A stretch of DNA of 64,000 nucleotides from Escherichia coli (GCF_013122565.1 NZ_CP053258.1); one strand, 5' to 3'. Shown: positions 35,986 through 48,100, counted from the first letter of the stretch. Translations and numbers: made by a program. The notes: a model not told the origin generated them from the sequence alone.

Positions 35986-36130
35986 ACTGGTTATTCCTTT
36001 AAGGGGTGAGTTGTTCTTAAGGAAAGCATAAAAAAAACATGCATACAACAATCAGAACGGTTCTGTCTGCTTGCTTTTAATGCCATACCAAACGTACCAT
36101 TGAGACACTTGTTTGCACAGAGGATGGCCC

Positions 36131-37009
36131 ATGTTCACGGGAAGTATTGTCGCGATTGTTACTCCGATGGATGAAAAAGGTAATGTCTGTCGGGCTAGCT
36201 TGAAAAAACTGATTGATTATCATGTCGCCAGCGGTACTTCGGCGATCGTTTCTGTTGGCACCACTGGCGAGTCCGCTACCTTAAATCATGACGAACATGC
36301 TGATGTGGTGATGATGACGCTGGAGCTGGCTGACGGGCGCATTCCGGTGATTGCCGGAACCGGCGCTAACGCTACTGCGGAAGCCATTAGCCTGACGCAG
36401 CGCTTCAATGACAGCGGTATCGTCGGCTGCCTGACGGTAACCCCTTACTACAATCGTCCGTCGCAAGAAGGTTTGTATCAGCATTTCAAAGCCATCGCTG
36501 AGCATACTGACCTGCCGCAAATTCTGTATAATGTGCCGTCCCGTACTGGCTGCGATCTGCTCCCGGAAACGGTGGGCCGTCTGGCGAAAGTAAAAAATAT
36601 TATCGGAATCAAAGAGGCAACAGGGAACTTAACGCGTGTAAACCAGATCAAAGAGCTGGTTTCAGATGATTTTGTTCTGCTGAGCGGCGATGATGCGAGC
36701 GCGCTGGACTTCATGCAATTAGGCGGTCATGGGGTTATTTCCGTTACGGCTAACGTCGCAGCGCGTGATATGGCCCAGATGTGCAAACTGGCAGCAGAAG
36801 GGCATTTTGCCGAGGCACGCGTTATTAATCAGCGTCTGATGCCATTACACAACAAACTATTTGTCGAACCCAATCCAATCCCGGTGAAATGGGCATGTAA
36901 GGAACTGGGTCTTGTGGCGACCGATACGCTGCGCCTGCCAATGACACCAATCACCGACAGTGGTCGTGAGACGGTCAGAGCGGCGCTTAAGCATGCCGGT
37001 TTGCTGTAA
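36131..37009 (+). CDS. dapA: 4-hydroxy-tetrahydrodipicolinate synthase
   Basis: ORF trimmed to [19 protein letters not shown]... (292 aa). Confidence 0.95.
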
Positions 37010-37025
37010 AGTTTAGGGAGATTTG

Positions 37026-38060
37026 ATGGCTTACTCTGTTCAAAAGTCGCGCCTGGCAAAGGTTGCGGGTGTTTCGCTTGTTTTATTGCTCGCTGCCTGT
37101 AGTTCTGACTCACGCTATAAGCGTCAGGTCAGTGGTGATGAAGCCTACCTGGAAGCGGCACCGCTTGCGGAGCTTCATGCCCCGGCTGGAATGATTTTGC
37201 CGGTGACCTCCGGTGATTATGCAATCCCGGTGACCAACGGTAGTGGTGCTGTCGGTAAGGCGCTGGACATTCGTCCACCAGCCCAGCCGCTGGCACTGGT
37301 TTCTGGCGCGCGTACCCAGTTCACGGGCGATACCGCTTCATTGCTGGTGGAAAATGGTCGTGGCAATACTCTGTGGCCGCAGGTGGTTAGCGTGCTGCAG
37401 GCGAAAAACTACACCATCACCCAACGTGATGATGCTGGTCAGACACTGACCACCGATTGGGTACAATGGAACCGTCTGGACGAAGACGAGCAGTATCGTG
37501 GTCGTTATCAAATCTCTGTTAAGCCGCAGGGTTATCAGCAGGCGGTTACGGTTAAACTGCTGAACCTGGAACAGGCGGGCAAACCGGTTGCAGACGCGGC
37601 TTCCATGCAGCGTTACAGCACGGAGATGATGAACGTTATTTCCGCCGGTCTGGATAAATCTGCCACTGACGCCGCGAACGCTGCGCAAAATCGTGCCTCC
37701 ACCACTATGGACGTACAAAGTGCAGCTGATGACACCGGTTTACCAATGCTGGTCGTACGCGGGCCGTTCAATGTGGTTTGGCAACGTCTGCCAGCGGCGC
37801 TGGAAAAAGTGGGCATGAAAGTGACCGACAGCACCCGTTCGCAGGGCAACATGGCCGTAACTTATAAGCCGCTGTCTGACAGCGACTGGCAGGAACTGGG
37901 CGCGAGCGATCCAGGCCTGGCATCCGGTGACTATAAACTGCAGGTTGGCGATTTAGATAACCGCAGCAGCCTACAGTTCATCGATCCGAAAGGTCATACT
38001 CTGACTCAGAGTCAGAACGACGCGCTGGTATCTGTCTTCCAGGCTGCGTTTAGCAAGTAA
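37026..38060 (+). CDS. bamC: Outer-membrane protein assembly factor BamC (lipoprotein)
   Basis: [27 protein letters not shown]... with lipobox LAAC; 344 aa; 16 bp after dapA (dapA-bamC operon). Confidence 0.94.
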
Positions 38061-38103
38061 AAATACAGGGCTGGAATCATCCGGCCCTTTTTTCTGATAT
38101 GAT

Positions 38104-38119
38104 ACGCAAACGTGTGCGT
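38104..38119 (+). promoter_or_regulatory. PurR operator upstream of purC
   Basis: acgcaaacgtgtgcgt matches the PurR box ACGCAAACGTTTGCGT at 15/16. Confidence 0.7.
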
Positions 38120-38165
38120 CGGCAGGAAAACGCGATTTTAGCGGTAATTCGCACGAAATTTGTTT

Positions 38166-38220
<55 letters not shown>

Positions 38221-38272
38221 ACCAGACAGCAAGAGATTTTAAAACGTTAATTCACACCCAGGAGTGATAAAG

Positions 38273-38986
38273 ATGCAAAAGCAAGCTGAGTTGTATCGTG
38301 GTAAAGCGAAAACCGTATACAGCACGGAAAACCCGGACCTGTTGGTGCTCGAATTCCGCAATGATACGTCAGCAGGGGATGGCGCGCGCATTGAGCAGTT
38401 TGATCGCAAAGGTATGGTGAACAACAAGTTCAACTACTTCATTATGAGCAAACTGGCTGAAGCGGGTATCCCGACTCAAATGGAGCGTCTGCTCTCCGAT
38501 ACCGAATGTCTGGTGAAAAAGCTGGATATGGTACCGGTTGAGTGTGTCGTGCGTAACCGTGCTGCGGGCTCTCTGGTGAAACGTCTTGGAATCGAAGAAG
38601 GTATTGAGCTGAACCCGCCGCTGTTCGATCTGTTTCTGAAAAACGACGCCATGCACGATCCGATGGTCAACGAATCTTACTGCGAAACCTTTGGCTGGGT
38701 AAGCAAAGAGAACCTGGCGCGTATGAAAGAGCTGACCTACAAAGCGAATGACGTGCTGAAAAAACTGTTCGATGATGCTGGTCTGATTCTGGTCGACTTC
38801 AAGCTGGAATTTGGTCTGTACAAAGGCGAAGTGGTACTGGGTGATGAGTTCTCCCCGGACGGTAGCCGCCTGTGGGACAAAGAAACGCTGGAGAAAATGG
38901 ACAAAGACCGTTTCCGCCAGAGCCTCGGTGGCCTGATCGAAGCCTATGAAGCCGTCGCCCGCCGCCTGGGTGTACAGCTGGACTGA
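38273..38986 (+). CDS. purC: SAICAR synthetase
   Basis: ORF trimmed to [28 protein letters not shown]... (237 aa); AGGAG RBS. Confidence 0.95.
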
Positions 38987-39153
38987 TTTTTCTGTTCATC
39001 ATCTTGCCGTGCAGCTGGCACGGCAAGACAACCGCTCTCGGAAGATGTGCATTGAACGCTCATTCCTCCGCCATTTCATCCCGCTTTCCTGTGGTAATCT
39101 TCCTCTGAACCACCTACGATCATTTCTATAATGAATATATTGTTGAGGTATCT

Positions 39154-40017
39154 ATGCGTTGGCAAGGGCGACGTGAAAGTGACAATGTTGAAGACAGGCG
39201 CAACAGCTCTGGTGGTCCGTCTATGGGCGGTCCCGGTTTTCGCCTGCCGAGCGGTAAAGGCGGGCTGATTTTACTGATAGTCGTGCTGGTTGCAGGCTAC
39301 TATGGCGTTGATTTAACCGGGTTGATGACCGGACAGCCGGTTTCCCAACAGCAATCAACGCGGTCAATTAGCCCAAATGAAGACGAAGCTGCAAAATTCA
39401 CCTCGGTGATTCTGGCAACCACGGAAGACACCTGGGGACAACAGTTCGAAAAGATGGGTAAGACCTATCAGCAACCGAAGCTGGTCATGTACCGTGGAAT
39501 GACGCGCACCGGATGCGGGGCGGGCCAGTCCATTATGGGGCCGTTCTATTGCCCGGCGGATGGCACGGTTTATATCGATCTCTCCTTCTATGATGACATG
39601 AAAGACAAACTTGGCGCGGATGGCGATTTTGCCCAGGGGTACGTTATCGCCCATGAGGTCGGTCATCATGTGCAGAAACTGTTAGGCATCGAGCCGAAAG
39701 TTCGTCAACTGCAACAAAACGCGACGCAGGCGGAAGTAAACCGCTTATCTGTGCGTATGGAACTCCAGGCCGACTGTTTTGCCGGTGTCTGGGGGCATAG
39801 TATGCAGCAGCAAGGCGTTCTGGAAACCGGCGATCTGGAAGAGGCGCTGAACGCGGCGCAGGCCATCGGCGATGACCGTTTACAACAGCAAAGTCAGGGG
39901 CGAGTAGTACCAGACAGTTTCACTCATGGCACTTCTCAGCAACGCTACAGCTGGTTTAAACGTGGTTTCGACAGCGGCGATCCGGCACAATGCAATACTT
40001 TTGGTAAAAGCATTTAA
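39154..40017 (+). CDS. ypfJ: Putative zinc metallopeptidase YpfJ (N-terminal membrane anchor, HExxH)
   Basis: 287 aa; Gly-rich N-terminus then TM helix ([15 protein letters not shown]); HEVGHH zinc-binding motif; function not established. Confidence 0.85.
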
Positions 40018-40031
40018 CTTCCGGGGCAGGG

Positions 40032-42047
40032 ATGGCTGAACTGACTGCGCTTCACACATTAACAGCGCAAATGAAACGTGAAGGGATCCGCCGCTTGCTG
40101 GTGTTGAGCGGGGAAGAGGGTTGGTGTTTTGATCATGCGCTTAAGTTGCGTGATGCCTTACCTGGCGACTGGCTGTGGATTTCGCCGCAGCCAGATGCTG
40201 AAAACCACTGTTTACCCTCGGCGCTACAAACTTTACTTGGGCGCGAGTTCCGGCATGCGGTATTCGACGCCCGCCACGGCTTTGATGCCGCTGCCTTTGC
40301 GGCACTTAGCGGAACGTTGAAAGCGGGAAGTTGGCTGGTTTTGTTACTCCCTGTATGGGAAGAGTGGGAAAACCAACCTGATGCCGACTCGCTGCGCTGG
40401 AGTGATTGCCCTGACCCTATTGCGACGCCGCATTTTGTCCAGCATCTCAAACGCGTACTTACGGCGGATAACGACGCTATTCTCTGGCGGCAAAACCAGC
40501 CGTTCTCGTTGGCGCATTTTACTCCCCGTACTGACTGGCACCCCGCGACCGGCACACCACAACCAGAACAACAGCAACTCTTACAGCAGTTACTGACCAT
40601 GCCGCCGGGCGTGGCAGCGGTAACTGCTGCGCGTGGGCGCGGTAAATCGGCGTTGGCAGGGCAACTCATTTCTCGTATTGCGGGCAGTGCGATTGTCACC
40701 GCGCCCGCAAAAGCGGCAACGGATGTACTGGCACAATTTGCGGGCGAGAAGTTTCGCTTTATTGCACCGGATGCCTTGTTAGCCAGCGATGAGCAAGCCG
40801 ACTGGCTGGTGGTCGATGAAGCCGCAGCCATACCTGCGCCGTTGTTGCATCAACTGGTATCGCATTTTCCTCGAACGTTGTTAACCACTACGGTGCAGGG
40901 CTACGAAGGCACCGGACGTGGTTTTTTGCTGAAATTTTGCGCTCGCTTTCCACATTTACACCGTTTTGAACTGCAACAGCCGATCCGCTGGGCACAGGGA
41001 TGCCCGCTGGAAAAAATGGTTAGTGAGGCACTGGTTTTTGACGATGAAAACTTCACCCATACACCACAAGGCAATATTGTCATTTCCGCATTTGAACAGA
41101 CGTTATGGCGAATCGAGCCAGAAACGCCGTTAAAGGTTTATCAGTTATTGTCTGGTGCGCACTACCGGACTTCGCCGCTGGATTTACGCCGCATGATGGA
41201 TGCACCAGGGCAACATTTTTTACAGGCGGCTGGCGACAACGAGATTGCCGGGGCGCTGTGGCTGGTGGATGAGGGGGGATTATCTCAACAACTCAGTCAG
41301 GCGGTATGGGCAGGTTTTCGTCGCCCTCGGGGTAATCTGGTGGCCCAGTCGCTGGCGGCGCACGGTAGCAATCCACTGGCGGCGACATTGCGTGGACGAC
41401 GGGTCAGCCGGATAGCAGTTCATCCGGCTCGTCAGCGGGAAGGCACAGGGCGGCAACTTATTGCTGGTGCTTTGCAATATACGCAAGACCTCGACTATCT
41501 TTCGGTAAGTTTTGGTTACACCGGGGAGTTATGGCGTTTCTGGCAACGCTGCGGTTTTGTGCTGGTGCGAATGGGTAATCATCGTGAAGCCAGCAGCGGT
41601 TGCTATACGGCGATGGCGCTGTTACCGATGAGTGATGCGGGTAAACAGCTGGCTGAACGTGAGCATTACCGTTTACGTCGCGATGCGCAAGCTCTCGCAA
41701 AGTGGAATGGCGAAACGCTTCCTGTTGATCCACTAAACGATGCCGTCCTTTCTGACGACGACTGGCTTGAACTGGCCGGTTTTGCTTTCGCTCATCGTCC
41801 GCTATTAACATCGTTAGGTTGCTTATTGCGTCTGCTACAAACCAGTGAACTGGCATTACCGGCGCTGCGTGGGCGTTTACAGAAAAACGCCAGTGACGCG
41901 CAGTTATGTACCACACTTAAACTTTCAGGCCGCAAGATGTTACTGGTCCGTCAGCGGGAAGAGGCCGCGCAGGCGCTGTTCGCACTTAATGATGTTCGCA
42001 CTGAGCGTCTGCGCGATCGCATAACGCAATGGCAATTTTTTCACTGA
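40032..42047 (+). CDS. tmcA: tRNA(Met) cytidine acetyltransferase (helicase-like ATPase plus GNAT)
   Basis: 671 aa; Walker A (ARGRGKSA), C-terminal GNAT-like region; equals YpfI/TmcA. Confidence 0.9.
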   Translation: MAELTALHTLTAQMKREGIRRLLVLSGEEGWCFDHALKLRDALPGDWLWISPQPDAENHCLPSALQTLLGREFRHAVFDARHGFDAAAFAALSGTLKAGSWLVLLLPVWEEWENQPDADSLRWSDCPDPIATPHFVQHLKRVLTADNDAILWRQNQPFSLAHFTPRTDWHPATGTPQPEQQQLLQQLLTMPPGVAAVTAARGRGKSALAGQLISRIAGSAIVTAPAKAATDVLAQFAGEKFRFIAPDALLASDEQADWLVVDEAAAIPAPLLHQLVSHFPRTLLTTTVQGYEGTGRGFLLKFCARFPHLHRFELQQPIRWAQGCPLEKMVSEALVFDDENFTHTPQGNIVISAFEQTLWRIEPETPLKVYQLLSGAHYRTSPLDLRRMMDAPGQHFLQAAGDNEIAGALWLVDEGGLSQQLSQAVWAGFRRPRGNLVAQSLAAHGSNPLAATLRGRRVSRIAVHPARQREGTGRQLIAGALQYTQDLDYLSVSFGYTGELWRFWQRCGFVLVRMGNHREASSGCYTAMALLPMSDAGKQLAEREHYRLRRDAQALAKWNGETLPVDPLNDAVLSDDDWLELAGFAFAHRPLLTSLGCLLRLLQTSELALPALRGRLQKNASDAQLCTTLKLSGRKMLLVRQREEAAQALFALNDVRTERLRDRITQWQFFH

Positions 42048-42120
42048 CTCCTTCAATTTTCTCCCATGGTCATTGTGAGTCAGCGGCGTAAAATTAATGA
42101 CATCAGTTAAGGAGTTCGCC

Positions 42121-42819
42121 ATGAAACATGACCATTTTGTTGTTCAAAGCCCGGATAAACCTGCGCAACAGTTGTTACTGCTTTTCCACGGTGTCGGGGA
42201 TAACCCGGTGGCAATGGGGGAAATAGGCAGTTGGTTTGCGCCGCTATTTCCTGATGCGCTGGTGGTGAGTGTCGGAGGCGCGGAGCCGAGCGGTAATCCG
42301 GCGGGGCGTCAGTGGTTTTCGGTGCAGGGTATTACGGAAGATAATCGCCAGGCGCGTGTGGATGCCATCATGCCGACGTTTATTGAAACGGTGCGCTACT
42401 GGCAGAAACAGAGCGGAGTAGGGGCTAACGCCACGGCGCTAATCGGTTTCTCTCAAGGCGCGATTATGGCGCTGGAGAGCATTAAAGCCGAACCGGGCCT
42501 TGCCTCACGCGTCATTGCCTTTAACGGACGCTATGCGAGCCTGCCGGAAACCGCGTCTACAGCCACGACAATTCACCTGATTCATGGTGGTGAAGATCCG
42601 GTTATCGATCTGGCGCATGCGGTTGCGGCGCAGGAAGCGTTAATCAGTGCCGGTGGTGACGTGACGCTGGATATCGTGGAGGATTTAGGCCATGCGATCG
42701 ACAATCGCAGTATGCAATTTGCCCTGGATCACTTGCGTTATACCATTCCGAAACATTATTTCGACGAAGCGCTAAGTGGCGGTAAGCCTGGCGATGATGA
42801 TGTGATTGAAATGATGTAA
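42121..42819 (+). CDS. ypfH: Alpha/beta-hydrolase fold esterase (phospholipase/carboxylesterase family)
   Basis: ORF trimmed to MKHDHFVVQSPDKPAQQLLLLFHGVGDNP... (232 aa); GFSQG nucleophile elbow. Confidence 0.88.
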   Translation: MKHDHFVVQSPDKPAQQLLLLFHGVGDNPVAMGEIGSWFAPLFPDALVVSVGGAEPSGNPAGRQWFSVQGITEDNRQARVDAIMPTFIETVRYWQKQSGVGANATALIGFSQGAIMALESIKAEPGLASRVIAFNGRYASLPETASTATTIHLIHGGEDPVIDLAHAVAAQEALISAGGDVTLDIVEDLGHAIDNRSMQFALDHLRYTIPKHYFDEALSGGKPGDDDVIEMM

Positions 42820-42824
42820 TAATA

Positions 42825-42894
42825 GCCGGGTAGGCCTGATAAGACCGTATCAGGCATCATGGCCGGATGCGGCGTTAACGCCTTATCCGGCCAC
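42825..42894. repeat. REP element cluster between ypfH and ypfN
   Basis: gccgggtaggcctgataagaccgtatcaggc...ggccggatgcggcgttaacgccttatccggccac. Confidence 0.8.
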
Positions 42895-42899
42895 TTAGC

Positions 42900-43100
42900 T
42901 TACTTCTTCGGTTGATCCTTTTTCGGCCAGTCGTCGTCATCGTCCCACTTATCGTTGAAATCACGATGCGGGGGAAGCTCCGGCTTGTTGGCGAGAAATT
43001 TCTTATGGTCGACGCGCTTGAGATCTTTAATCACGTTCAGCAGGACGCCTACCAAAAAGACAATCACCAGAATCCACCAATATTTAGCCAGCCAGTCCAT
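42900..43100 (-). CDS. ypfN: Small membrane protein YpfN (UPF0370)
   Basis: ORF trimmed to [27 protein letters not shown]... (66 aa); one TM helix and an acidic DDDDDW tail. Confidence 0.8.
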
Positions 43101-43127
43101 GCTTATTTCCTCTTGCAGAACCACTCA

Positions 43128-44255
43128 TCAGGCGACGAGCTGTTCCATGATACGTTGATACATACGGGCAAGTAGCTGCAGGTCGGCAGCGTTCACACAT
43201 TCATTAATTTTATGAATAGTGGCATTGACCGGCCCGAGTTCCACCACCTGCGCCCCCATGCGAGCAATAAAGCGCCCGTCGGACGTTCCGCCTGTGGTCA
43301 GTAGCTGCGGTTTAATTTCATTATAGTGCTCAACCGCGTTAACGACCGCATCCACCAGTTTACCGCGCGCGGTCAAAAATGGCTGCCCGGAAAGCCACCA
43401 ATCCACCGTATAGCGCAGTTGATGTTTTTCAAGCAGGGCAAGCACCTGCGCTTTGATCATCTCATCAGTCAGTTCGGTGCTGAAGCGGAAGTTAAACTGC
43501 ACAAACAGTTCACCCGGAATAACGTTGTTACTGCCCGTTCCCGCCTGAATATTGGCAATCTGCATACTGGTCGCCGGGAAGAATTCATTGCCCTGATCCC
43601 ACTCAATAGCCACTAATTCATTAAGGAAAGGTGCTGCGCGATGTACCGGATTGTCAGCCAGATGTGGGTAGGCCACATGCCCCTGCACGCCATGAATGGT
43701 AAGGTTGCAGGTTAATGATCCGCGACGACCATTTTTCACCACATCACCTACCACTTCGATACTCGACGGTTCGCCGACCAGGCAGTAATCGAGACGCTCA
43801 TTACGCGCCATTAACGCTTCGACGACTTTTACCGTACCGTTGTGGGCACTGGCTTCTTCATCAGAAGTGATCAGAAATGCCAGTCGCCCCGTATGGTTGG
43901 GATGTTGTGCGACAAAACGTTCTGCCGCTACCACCATCGCCGCCAGCGAGCCTTTCATATCTGCCGCACCGCGCCCGAATAACATGCCGTCACGAATGGT
44001 TGGTTCAAACGGCGGATTGATCCAACGGTCGGCGTCGCCAGGCGGCACCACGTCGGTATGCCCGGCAAAGGCTAACGTTTCACCCTGCCCACGCCATGCC
44101 CAAAAATTCTGCGTATCGGCAAAGTCCATGCGTTCAACGGTAAAACCGATCGCCTGCAAACGTTCAATCAACAAAGCCTGGCATCCTGCGTCATCAGGAC
44201 TCAGGGAAGGGCGGCGAATAAGCTGTTGTGTCAGCTCAATAACCGGGCACGACAT
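43128..44255 (-). CDS. dapE: Succinyl-diaminopimelate desuccinylase
   Basis: 375 aa; [26 protein letters not shown]...; M20 peptidase family. Confidence 0.95.
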
Positions 44256-44258
44256 AGA

Positions 44259-44633
<375 letters not shown>

Positions 44634-44995
44634 TTATGAGAATAAATACTCATTTAAGAGTGAAAACATTTTGCCTGCAAATGATTATCAGGAAATATAA
44701 CATTATCGAAGTATTCAAATTAACAACTATTAAATAATATTAAACATTTTTAACGTAAACATTAAGAATATTCATCTTGTTATCTGTCTGTATTTTAACC
44801 AGAATTAAATAAGTATTAGATGCCGTATGAATATCTCGAAATGTTGCTGTGTATCACATACAAATCATCACCGCAGGACCATAGTATTTACATAAGGTTT
44901 GTCCCCCGGAGGTAGTCATCGCAGCAATCGAGTAAATTAGCTTCACCACGGTATATTGTTTCCGTAGAATACCCATAATTATAAGAGAGGTTGTT

Positions 44996-45055
44996 ATGAT
45001 TGAACGTGAACTGGGGAACTGGAAAGACTTTATCGAAGTTATGCTTCGTAAGTAA
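44996..45055 (+). CDS. ypfM: 19-aa small protein YpfM
   Basis: atg att gaa cgt gaa ctg ggg aac tgg aaa gac ttt atc gaa gtt atg ctt cgt aag taa = MIERELGNWKDFIEVMLRK, preceded by an AGAGAGG RBS; matches the reported E. coli small protein YpfM between yffB and acrD. Confidence 0.7.
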   Translation: MIERELGNWKDFIEVMLRK

Positions 45056-45115
45056 TTCCTGAGACAAAGTACAAACAGCAAGAACCCGCTGAGCAGGTTC
45101 TTAATCGGAAAGTTG

Positions 45116-45150
45116 AAAAAGGCGACACATTGGCATGTCGCCTTTTTTAT
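45116..45150. terminator. Bidirectional rho-independent terminator downstream of acrD and ypfM
   Basis: aaaaaggcgacacattggcatgtcgccttttttat: 8-bp stem flanked by an A-run and a T-run. Confidence 0.75.
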
Positions 45151-45153
45151 TGC

Positions 45154-48100
45154 TTATTCCGGGCGCGGCTTCAGCGGGAAGCGGCGGCGCACCAGCACAA
45201 AGAACAGCGGCACGAAGTAAATAGCCAGAATAGTAGCCGAAATCATCCCGCCCATTACGCCAGTACCCACCGCATGCTGACCACCGGAACCGGCACCCGT
45301 GCTGGTTGCCATTGGCAATACGCCGAAGATAAATGCCAGCGAGGTCATCAGAATCGGGCGTAAACGCTGACGGCAGGCGTGGAGCGTCGCTTCAAACAGG
45401 TCGTGGCCTTTTTGGTTCATCTCGTTAGCAAACTCGACGATCAGGATGGCGTTTTTCGCCGATAAACCAATGACCGTTAACAGGCCCACCTGGAAGTAAA
45501 CGTCGTTTTCCAGCCCGCGCATCCAGGTTGCCAGCAGCGCGCCGATAACCCCCAGCGGCACGACCAACATTACCGAGAACGGCACCGACCAGCTTTCATA
45601 CAATGCCGCCAGACACAGGAATACCACCAGCAAGGAAATGGCGTACAGCGCCGGAGCCTGCGCGCCGGAAAGCCGCTCCTGATACGACATCGCCGTCCAC
45701 TCCAGACCAAAGCCGTTTGGCAACTGCTTCACTAACGATTCCATAATATCCATCGCCGTACCGGTACTGACCCCCGGTGCGGCTTCCCCAACAATCTCAA
45801 CCGCAGAATAACCGTTATAGCGTTCCAGACGCGGCGAGCCTGTCTCCCAGCGTGAGGTCGCGAAAGCAGAGAAGGGCACCATGCCGCCATCTTTATTTCG
45901 GACATACCAGAGATTGATGTCATCTGGCAGCATGCGATACGGCGCAGCTGCCTGCACATAGACTTTCTTCACGCGACCGCGATCCATAAAGTCATTCACA
46001 TAGCTCGAACCCCAGGCGGTTTGCAGTGTGTCGTTAATATCGTCGATAGCAACGCCCAGCGCCTGAGCTTTACGCTGGTCGATATCAATCTGCAACTGCG
46101 GACTGTCGTCGAGGCCGTTATGGCGCACACGGGTTAGCTCCGGGTTTTCCGCCGCCAGCGCCAGCAACTGGTTACGTGCTGCCATCAGCGCATCGTGACC
46201 TGCTCCAGCGTGGTCCTGCAACTCCATATCAAAACCTGCAGAACTACCAAGACCGCTAATTGCTGGCGGGCTGCTGGCGATAACGCGAGCTTCTTTAATT
46301 TGGTTAAACGCCTTTGTTGCACGCTCGATAATGGCAAACGAGGTGCCGGTCTTACTGTCGCGTTCGCTCCAGTCTTTCAGGCGGATAAACATTCGCGCCA
46401 CGTTTTGCCCGTTGCCCCCAGGGCCAGAGCCAACGGTGGCAAACACCGACATGATGTTGTCTTTTTCATGGGTGAAGTAATATTTCTCGATTTGCTCAAC
46501 GACTTTCAGGGTCTGTTGTTGGGTTGAACCGCTGGGCAATTGTACCGAGGTAGTAAACATGCCACGGTCTTCCAGCGGTAAGAACGACGTCGGCAAACGC
46601 AGGAACAGGAACACCATGCCGCCAAGCAGCAGGACATAAATCACAATCCAGCGCAGGCTACGGTGGAGAATTTTCGCCACCCCTTTTTCGTAGCGTTCGG
46701 CGTTGCGGTTAAACATCTGGTTAAACCAGGCAAAAAAGCCTTTTTGCCCGTGATGCTCACCTTTTTTCAGTGGCTTAAGTAGCGTGGCACACAGAGCCGG
46801 AGTGAGGATCATCGCTACCAGTACTGACAGCACCATCGCCGCAACAATGGTAATAGAGAACTGGCGATAGATGGCACCGGTGGTGCCGCCGAAGAAGGCC
46901 ATTGGTACAAATACCGCCGAAAGCACCATCGCAATCCCGACCAGTGCCCCCTGGATCTGCCCCATCGATTTACGTGTGGCTTCGCGAGGAGTGAGTCCTT
47001 CCTCACTCATAATACGTTCGACGTTTTCCACCACCACGATGGCATCATCCACCAGCAGACCGATCGCCAGCACCATCGCGAACATGGTTAAGGTGTTGAC
47101 GCTGTAACCGAAGGCGTAAAGTACGGAGAAGGTTCCCATCAACACCACCGGCACGGCGATAGTGGGTATCAGCGTGGCGCGGAAGTTTTGCAGGAACAGA
47201 TACATAACGAGGAAAACCAGAGCGATAGCTTCCAGCAGCGTTTTCACCACGTCTTCAATGGAGGCTTTAACAAACGAGGTGGTTTCATATGCCACCTTGT
47301 ATTCCAGTCCGTGCGGGAAATACTGCGCCAGCTCGTCGAGACGATTGAGCACCAGCTCCGCTGTCGCCATTTCGTTAGCGCCGGAGGCCAGTTTTACCCC
47401 CAGCCCGGAGGCTGGCTTACCATTGAAGCGGCTAAGATAATCGTATTTCTCCGCCCCCATTTCGACGGTGGCGACATCGCCCAGCCTTACCTCTGAGCCG
47501 TCCTGATTCACCCGCAAGGTGATATCGCGGAACTGTTCTGGTGTTTGCAGCAGTGACTGGGCGTTAATGGTGGCGTTGAGCGCCTGCTTATCGACGGAAG
47601 GTGTACCCCCAAGTTGTCCAACCGCAATCTGCGCGTTCTGTGACTCAATGGCATCAGTGACATCTTTAGCCGTCATCTGGAAACTGTTGAGTTTCGCCGG
47701 GTCCAGCCAGATACGCATGGAATATTGCGAACCATAGGCATCGATATCCCCGACGCCATTCACGCGGCTTAACGGGTCCTGAATATTACTGGCAACATAA
47801 TCAGCAATATCCTGTTTATCCATCGAACCATCGGTAGAGACGAAGGCAATGGTCAGAATGTTGGTATCGCCGGTTTTACGCACCGTCACGCCCTGATTTT
47901 GCACCGCCTGCGGTAACTTTCGCATGGCTGATTGCAGCTGGTTTTGTACTTGCTGCACGGCTTCGTCCGGATCGGTGCCTGCTTTAAAACTTAAAGTGAC
48001 AGATGCCTGACCGGTGCCACTGCTCTGAGATGACATATACATGAGATTATCGAGGCCGGTCATATTTTGCTCGATAACCTGGGTCACGGTGTTTTCCAGC

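Follow-up and report, generated by a model that had tools for sequence, protein, structure and literature searches.

The ypfJ, tmcA and ypfH genes and their products

In the 64,000-nucleotide stretch of Escherichia coli DNA analyzed here (GCF_013122565.1, NZ_CP053258.1; hereafter, the window), positions 39154–42819 carry three open reading frames (ORFs), all of them on the + strand. The first, ypfJ (39154–40017), encodes a single-pass, membrane-anchored zinc metallopeptidase of 287 amino acids; the second, tmcA (40032–42047), a tRNA(Met) cytidine-34 N4-acetyltransferase of 671 amino acids; and the third, ypfH (42121–42819), an alpha/beta-hydrolase esterase of 232 amino acids. The cluster is preceded by gcvR, which points in the opposite direction, and by the co-oriented dapA, bamC and purC genes, and is followed by ypfN, dapE, yffB and acrD in reverse orientation. 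It ends at ypfN (42900–43100, - strand), annotated in the matching RefSeq record, which encodes a 66-amino-acid small membrane protein and is convergent with ypfH. Megablast searches locate the block at 95–99% identity in 5425 of 5426 complete E. coli genomes, where the genes are annotated as ypfJ (KPN_02809 family neutral zinc metallopeptidase), tmcA (tRNA cytosine(34) acetyltransferase) and ypfH (esterase), and the arrangement is hence not due to chance. An earlier note on this DNA had singled out these genes as a co-oriented cluster of obscure function. Their placement and orientation are as it described, and their obscurity was overstated: all three are annotated core-genome genes from described families, already known and ordinary, among which TmcA has a solved structure (2ZPA), YpfH belongs to a named esterase family and the Klebsiella YpfJ is a demonstrated protease.

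The spacing between these genes differs slightly from that first proposed. The ypfJ–tmcA spacer (40018–40031, + strand, CTTCCGGGGCAGGG) spans 14 nt, instead of 15, and the interval between tmcA and ypfH depends on the choice of ypfH start codon. The long ORF begins at 42097, but translation almost certainly initiates at the ATG at 42121. This is the RefSeq-annotated start, it lies 6 nt downstream of a ribosome-binding site (AAGGAG, 42109–42114, + strand) that is conserved in more than 40 relatives, and the NF008525 esterase model aligns residues 9–240 of the long ORF to its positions 1–232 of 232. Since ypfH begins at 42121, the tmcA–ypfH spacer measures 73 nt, and not the 49 previously claimed.

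The YpfJ protein matches the PF04228 (Zn_peptidase) hidden Markov model over essentially its full length (residues 1–283 on model positions 1–290 of 290; 498.6 bits, cut-off 23.2, E 8e-150) and exceeds the curated cut-off of the NCBIfam equivalog NF050010 (Zn_HExGHH_YpfJ; 380.2 bits, cut-off 250). The HExGHH motif appears as HEVGHH (codons 39652–39669, + strand; residues 167–172), a zinc-binding and catalytic motif within a predicted helix at residues 158–176, and an ELQAD sequence with the candidate third zinc ligand, E203, follows on a predicted helix at residues 192–219 (codons 39760–39774, + strand; residues 203–207). Across 29 aligned homologues, which represent seven phyla or classes, H167, H171 and H172 show no variation and E168 almost none, and E203, L204, Q205 and A206 are likewise invariant; by likeness to the gluzincins, E203 is inferred to act as the third zinc ligand. 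Word-index searches, conducted with single proteins and with the YpfJ alignment, returned close enterobacterial relatives only, and the diverse homologues were obtained through tblastn against a plasmid collection that contains many mislabelled chromosomes. Many of its ypfJ-bearing "plasmid" records are megabase-sized and unannotated (e.g., NZ_OL790696.1, 4.8 Mb) and look like such chromosomes, and a 29-kb E. coli "plasmid" (NZ_CP019906.1) carries a 100% identical ypfJ. The matches also include 16 Enterococcus plasmid records, and conjugative plasmids of Enterococcus faecium encode a YpfJ homologue with 46% identity beside an IS6 transposase (pK162-1-A, L006:6001-6894), indicating that the family also moves horizontally.

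The AlphaFold model built on this alignment (predicted local distance difference test [pLDDT] 83, predicted template modelling score 0.79) displays a gluzincin fold of clan MA(E), with a thermolysin-like HExxH helix, a Glu-bearing helix and a beta-sheet subdomain. A Foldseek search of the model against the PDB returned nothing significant (best E 0.24). As neither sequence searches nor Foldseek located a close solved relative, the YpfJ family can be regarded as forming a branch of its own within a known fold. The structure prediction thus answers in the affirmative the question of a zinc metallopeptidase fold raised by the earlier note, which had been largely settled in 2012 by work on Klebsiella pneumoniae KPN_02809. 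The purified protein is a zinc-dependent protease that binds one Zn and hydrolyses casein, is inhibited by ethylenediaminetetraacetic acid (EDTA), phenanthroline and dithiothreitol (DTT), and loses activity in the H171S and E172D mutants (KPN_02809 numbering; PMC3269727). The YpfJ of the window is 82–84% identical to KPN_02809, the only one of the two for which zinc-dependent proteolysis has been published. A physiological substrate for YpfJ was not found in the searchable literature, in agreement with the absence of an assigned substrate stated in the earlier note. Insertion in the Yersinia pestis ypfJ leaves psaA expression, the sole phenotype tested, unaffected, and ypfJ has been listed among the genes whose overexpression is associated with hypochlorous acid resistance.

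The predicted translation of ypfJ presents, as first described, a Gly-rich N-terminus and a single transmembrane helix ahead of HEVGHH. The N-terminal tail (residues 1–37) is basic and contains nine Gly residues, and the helix (codons 39265–39315, + strand; residues 38–54, Kyte-Doolittle 2.34) corresponds to a run of 17 uninterrupted hydrophobic residues that is present in all 29 homologues. Its flanks contain two Lys/Arg residues on the N-terminal side and none on the C-terminal side. Two cysteines (C121 and C133) are invariant in the alignment, another two (C208 and C280) are substituted jointly in Enterococcus, Acetoanaerobium and Chondrinema, and actinobacterial copies display an additional Cys pair. 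In Nonomuraea gerenzanensis, two homologues are encoded in tandem (L010:5734-6588 and L010:6717-7562), each with the extra Cys pair in its linker; the true start of both precedes the first in-frame ATG, and each begins M(Q/D)F...DPSQVED. Because the helix is universally present in the alignment, carries Lys/Arg on its N-terminal side and is accompanied by paired cysteines, and because the orthologue is inhibited by DTT, the most likely reading is an exported catalytic domain, located in the periplasm in E. coli and stabilised by disulfides, with a cytoplasmic tail. If this is correct, YpfJ would act in a compartment different from that of TmcA. Export through the twin-arginine pathway, which might have reconciled an exported domain with the docking of the tail described below, was considered and rejected, as over 20 residues separate the RR pairs from the hydrophobic core.

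The first 17 residues of the tail (codons 39154–39204, + strand) conform to a motif, M-R-W-x-G-R-R-x-S-x-N-V-E-D-R-R-G, that is conserved across phyla. It is maintained from E. coli to Enterococcus, the Clostridia and the Bacteroidota, and appears as ...DPSQVEDRGG in Nonomuraea after start correction. The AlphaFold model assigns this tail high pLDDT values (95 for residues 1–10 and 84 for residues 11–20), with a strand at residues 12–15, and in the model the tail packs on the catalytic domain. TmcA was rejected as a partner for the tail, since the latter is conserved where ypfJ loci have no tmcA.

The identity of the remaining two proteins is straightforward. TmcA contains the helicase-like ATPase, GNAT and tRNA-binding domains (PF05127, PF13718, PF17176 and PF08351) and matches the characterised E. 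coli protein in the PDB (2ZPA) over its full length (residues 1–671, E 0). Its Walker A motif (RGRGK, residues 201–205) is invariant, and its sole NCBIfam match is, as expected, an archaeal equivalog that scores below its cut-off. YpfH scores well above the cut-off of equivalog NF008525 (428.8 bits, cut-off 191, E 4e-129), matches PF02230 over its full length (E 2e-59) and presents a GFSQG nucleophile motif (GxSxG).

Transcription signals

Several sequence features bear on how these genes might be transcribed. A GC-rich hairpin with an 11-bp stem follows the purC stop codon (39002–39028, + strand; z -2.2). It lacks a U tract, is seen only in Escherichia (the window and E. albertii, L014) in the intergenic alignment, and is unlikely to block transcription completely, given that a long-read study has named a "dapA-ypfJ operon". 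That study offers nothing on tmcA, and its naming of the operon implies that read-through from upstream contributes to ypfJ. A promoter-like site lies between the hairpin and ypfJ (39092–39120, + strand), with TGGTAA (39092–39097) and TACGAT (39115–39120) elements separated by 17 nt. This arrangement is conserved in 25 of 30 Enterobacteriaceae loci and has variant forms in 7 of 11 from the Erwiniaceae, and its -10 element ends 32–41 nt before the ypfJ ATG across loci. A perfect TATAAT (39127–39132, + strand), 22 nt upstream of the ATG, provides a possible alternative -10 element, and it is unconserved outside Escherichia. In some E. coli strains a vapBC toxin-antitoxin pair is found between purC and ypfJ (L001:4229-4854, L084), expanding the purC–ypfJ gap to about 930 nt versus the 167 nt of the window, where the corresponding site (roughly 38987–39090) has no insertion.

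The junction between ypfJ and tmcA is devoid of such signals. Folding of the 14-nt spacer yielded no stable structure and no hairpin; a consensus scan found neither a promoter-like nor a terminator-like site at the junction or near it, and no promoter-like site in the 3' part of ypfJ. The distance between both genes ranges from -25 to +28 nt in more than 40 Enterobacteriaceae and Erwiniaceae loci, with frequent overlaps of 1 or 4 nt. On these grounds, ypfJ and tmcA are very likely co-transcribed, as the earlier note had suggested for a metallopeptidase and a tRNA-modification enzyme. To regard ypfH as a mere third gene of the unit would be too simple, for a promoter-like site (TGGTCA, 16-nt spacer, TAAAAT; 42067–42094, + strand) identified by consensus scan and conservation lies in the tmcA–ypfH interval. 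The TGGTCA-16-TAnAnT pattern is present in all 30 Enterobacteriaceae loci, and the site reads as the footprint of a real promoter because the length of its spacer is fixed while the spacer sequence varies. A hairpin at the tmcA stop codon (42044–42083) was rejected as a terminator, since it lacks a U tract and is unconserved between genera, and the absence of a conserved terminator before the ypfH site makes read-through from tmcA likely. A single three-gene operon is thus consistent with the ypfJ–tmcA junction and inconsistent with the tmcA–ypfH junction, and the best reading of these signals comprises two nested units, ypfJ-tmcA(-ypfH) and ypfH alone. Downstream of ypfH, two hairpins of the repetitive extragenic palindromic (REP) type separate it from the convergent ypfN (42834–42893, + strand; -43.7 kcal/mol, z -4.3). 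Searches with Rfam detected no RNA family within 36000–45500, and a literature search for operon data on tmcA, ypfI and ypfH returned nothing useful.

Gene neighbourhood across Enterobacterales and beyond

To compare this arrangement among species, 80 tmcA loci were taken from one-genome-per-species contigs, and YpfJ, YpfH, PurC, BamC, DapA and DapE were located in them; a representative library provided the 63 diverse sequences of the TmcA alignment with which these loci were retrieved. The Enterobacterales share the order dapA-bamC-purC-[ypfJ]-[DUF441]-tmcA-[ypfH]-dapE, in which the bracketed genes are present in some lineages only. The DUF441 gene product is a 150-amino-acid membrane protein of the PF04284 (YeaL-family) group (E about 1e-46). 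Among the 75 loci with enough upstream sequence, ypfJ directly precedes tmcA in 49, which include all Enterobacteriaceae, Erwiniaceae and Serratia, and direct contact between the two genes is limited to these groups. The DUF441 gene lies between ypfJ and tmcA in 12 loci (Yersinia, Rahnella, Budvicia, Acerihabitans, Arsenophonus, Moellerella, Morganella, Providencia and Proteus), precedes tmcA without ypfJ in 10 (Photorhabdus, Pectobacterium, Brenneria, Rouxiella and others), and is missing together with ypfJ in the remaining four (Edwardsiella and three Rodentibacter). Two Dickeya loci show a purC-DUF441-tmcA order without ypfJ; in two genomes with more divergent tmcA genes (37–41% identity) the DUF441 gene is directly upstream, with no ypfJ, and in two still more distant ones the neighbours are unrelated. 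The ypfH gene is absent in 27 of 76 loci.

The association is also lost when followed from the side of ypfJ. Neither tmcA nor ypfH was found within 6 kb of 11 distant ypfJ homologues, from Vibrio, Acinetobacter, Shinella, Enterococcus, Acetoanaerobium, Azospirillum, Burkholderia, Nonomuraea, Chondrinema, Nocardia and Pseudorhodobacter. The adjacency that would be expected of a functionally coupled pair is therefore not kept across distant genomes with both genes. The DUF441 gene, in turn, ends 1–20 nt before tmcA in 27 loci (Yersinia, Rahnella, Rouxiella, Pectobacteriaceae, Morganellaceae, Budvicia and two divergent genomes; examples outside the window are L055:7520-7972, L078:7471-7923, L048:7498-7950, L094:4541-4993 and L095:101-556), and its occurrence immediately ahead of tmcA is more widespread than that of ypfJ.

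Median identity to the window proteins amounts to 77% for YpfJ, 56% for TmcA, 75% for YpfH and 91% for PurC (loci L014–L093), and YpfJ is conserved beyond TmcA in 61 of the 62 loci encoding both. The higher conservation of YpfJ is evidence of strong purifying selection. The YpfJ of Klebsiella sp. BIGb0407 (L040:7147-7995) departs from this pattern, with 45% identity versus about 80% in neighbouring genera. In this protein HAVGH replaces HEVGH, with loss of the catalytic Glu, and the N-terminal motif, the GDD motif and H258 have been lost as well, but the ORF remains intact, with a 4-nt overlap with tmcA. The protein may represent a decaying enzyme that is retained as an upstream ORF for tmcA expression, and the persistence of an intact, overlapping ORF in spite of its decay fits a dependence of tmcA expression on the translation of that ORF.

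Origin of the ypfJ–tmcA junction, topology of YpfJ and relation to known systems

These observations favour, with a probability of roughly 0.75, a model in which three unrelated core housekeeping genes share a locus, ypfJ and tmcA form one unit and the junction between them is an accident of DUF441 gene loss. In this model, ypfJ would specify a single-pass inner-membrane protein with a gluzincin domain, its zinc site formed by HExxH and a downstream Glu; TmcA would operate in the cytoplasm, acetylating the wobble cytidine of elongator tRNA-Met with ATP and acetyl-CoA; and YpfH would be a cytoplasmic serine esterase or thioesterase. The ypfJ-tmcA unit would be driven by the conserved sigma-70-type site located about 35 nt upstream of ypfJ, in addition to read-through from dapA-bamC-purC, and translation of tmcA would probably be coupled to that of ypfJ. 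The ypfH gene would rely on the promoter-like site in its 73-nt spacer, and probably also on read-through, and the unit would end at the REP hairpins facing ypfN. The loss of the DUF441 gene from between ypfJ and tmcA in the Enterobacteriaceae, Erwiniaceae and Serratia would have left a protease gene abutting tmcA. The tight junction is clade-restricted, and the pairing is hence not a conserved functional one; on grounds of parsimony, DUF441 loss is its simplest explanation. The combination of a protease with a tRNA-modification enzyme, which the earlier note had deemed unexplained, thus admits an ordinary historical account. Of the elements of this model, gene identities, fold, spacing, synteny and conserved hexamers are direct results of the analysis, and the starts of transcription, the translational coupling, the membrane topology, the disulfides and the direction in which the locus changed are inferences.

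The tightness of the junction throughout the Enterobacteriaceae and Erwiniaceae, with its often overlapping stop and start codons, could instead indicate that ypfJ and tmcA remain together since they work together, either through contact between the YpfJ tail and TmcA or through a co-regulation linking envelope proteolysis to decoding fidelity. The Klebsiella sp. BIGb0407 locus, which preserves the ORF and its overlap with tmcA after decay of the YpfJ active site and N-terminal motif, can be cited in favour of this notion, but it fits translational coupling equally well. Moreover, at least 16 loci carry a tmcA but no ypfJ (among them those of Photorhabdus, Pectobacterium, Dickeya, Brenneria, Rouxiella, Edwardsiella and Rodentibacter), the DUF441 gene intervenes in 12 others, and ypfJ genes encoding the same tail lack a tmcA within 6 kb in Enterococcus, the Clostridia, the Bacteroidota, the alpha- and beta-proteobacteria and the actinobacteria. 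Together with the most likely periplasmic location of the YpfJ catalytic domain, as opposed to the cytoplasmic one of TmcA, this renders a shared function highly improbable. Less remote, if still quite unlikely, is the idea that ypfJ, tmcA and ypfH are transcribed independently and that their short spacing has no effect on expression. The conserved promoter-like site and strong ribosome-binding site of ypfH agree with such independence, as does the 116–200 nt spacer that precedes DUF441-tmcA in the lineages with a DUF441 gene, from which it follows that the promoters of tmcA and ypfJ were once separate. Nonetheless, the 14 nt of the window, or the overlap of its relatives, are too small to accommodate a terminator and a promoter, no promoter-like site is apparent in the 3' part of ypfJ and the junction has no hairpin.

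Several considerations weigh against the model based on DUF441 loss and co-transcription. The case for loss, rather than gain, of the DUF441 gene is a parsimony argument made without a rooted tree, and Serratia shares the direct junction even though other genera of its family keep the DUF441 gene. The readings of the junction rest on sequence, and a tmcA promoter inside ypfJ is possible; the promoter calls derive from conservation only, and their -35 hexamers are weak, matching the consensus at 3–4 of 6 positions. The KPN_02809 assays used casein and a cytoplasmically made glutathione S-transferase fusion, and are uninformative on the natural substrate (PMC3269727). Lastly, the confident docking of the YpfJ tail in the AlphaFold model conflicts with a tail and a catalytic domain located on opposite sides of the membrane.

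The docked tail could reflect an artefact of modelling, a latency peptide or a different topology. Should the membrane not separate the tail from the catalytic domain, the S-x-N-V-E-D-R-R-G segment of the tail would constitute a latency peptide in or on the active-site region, and the helix would serve as a peripheral anchor instead of spanning the membrane. We consider this arrangement unlikely: the 17-residue hydrophobic helix of all 29 homologues has a clear positive-inside bias, the paired behaviour of the cysteines and the extra Cys pairs of the actinobacterial proteins point to an exported domain, the orthologue is inhibited by DTT, and AlphaFold takes no account of membranes. A somewhat more doubtful proposal is that the tail is a regulatory element of a widespread membrane protease, be it as an active-site latency peptide or as a cytoplasmic handle controlling a periplasmic enzyme. 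If so, YpfJ would be a regulated, and not a housekeeping, protease; a latency peptide in the active site would overturn the assumed topology; and expression with dapA-bamC, and with tmcA in enterobacteria, might reflect a growth-linked programme.

Under the favoured account of three unrelated genes brought together by DUF441 loss, the pairing of a protease with a tRNA enzyme needs no special biology. It does carry practical consequences, since insertions and deletions in the ypfJ of E. coli or related bacteria probably have polar effects on tmcA, and phenotypes ascribed to ypfJ or tmcA hence call for non-polar alleles. The start of ypfH and its own promoter-like site are now defined, and the high conservation and phylum-spanning N-terminal motif of YpfJ make it a reasonable target for periplasmic substrate profiling.

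The locus resembles the mixed-function operons that arise through deletion of intervening genes, which likewise bring together unrelated genes at tight or overlapping, clade-limited junctions; in this case the sister clades keep the DUF441 gene. Such operons represent a general pattern, instead of a defined family, and the direction of change in the present case is a proposal. At the protein level, the window TmcA is the 2ZPA protein (E. coli YpfI), a member of the NAT10/Kre33 RNA cytidine acetyltransferases, and presents no difference from it. The window YpfH conforms to the YpfH / PRK11460 esterases (PF02230, acyl-protein-thioesterase-like) in its NF008525 and PF02230 matches and its GFSQG motif, and its closest solved structure is only a distant one (5DWD, E 1e-17). 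YpfJ shares with the KPN_02809/YpfJ family the same N-terminal motif, transmembrane helix and HExGHH architecture, and departs from the well-known gluzincins (thermolysin in M4, neprilysin/PepO in M13 and BepA/HtpX in M48), with which it has about 10% sequence identity. Its domain is much smaller than the M13 enzymes, its zinc-binding motif is followed by an extra His (HExxHH) and, in contrast with those enzymes, it combines conserved GDD and FTHG motifs of its own with a single N-terminal membrane anchor and a conserved N-terminal tail.

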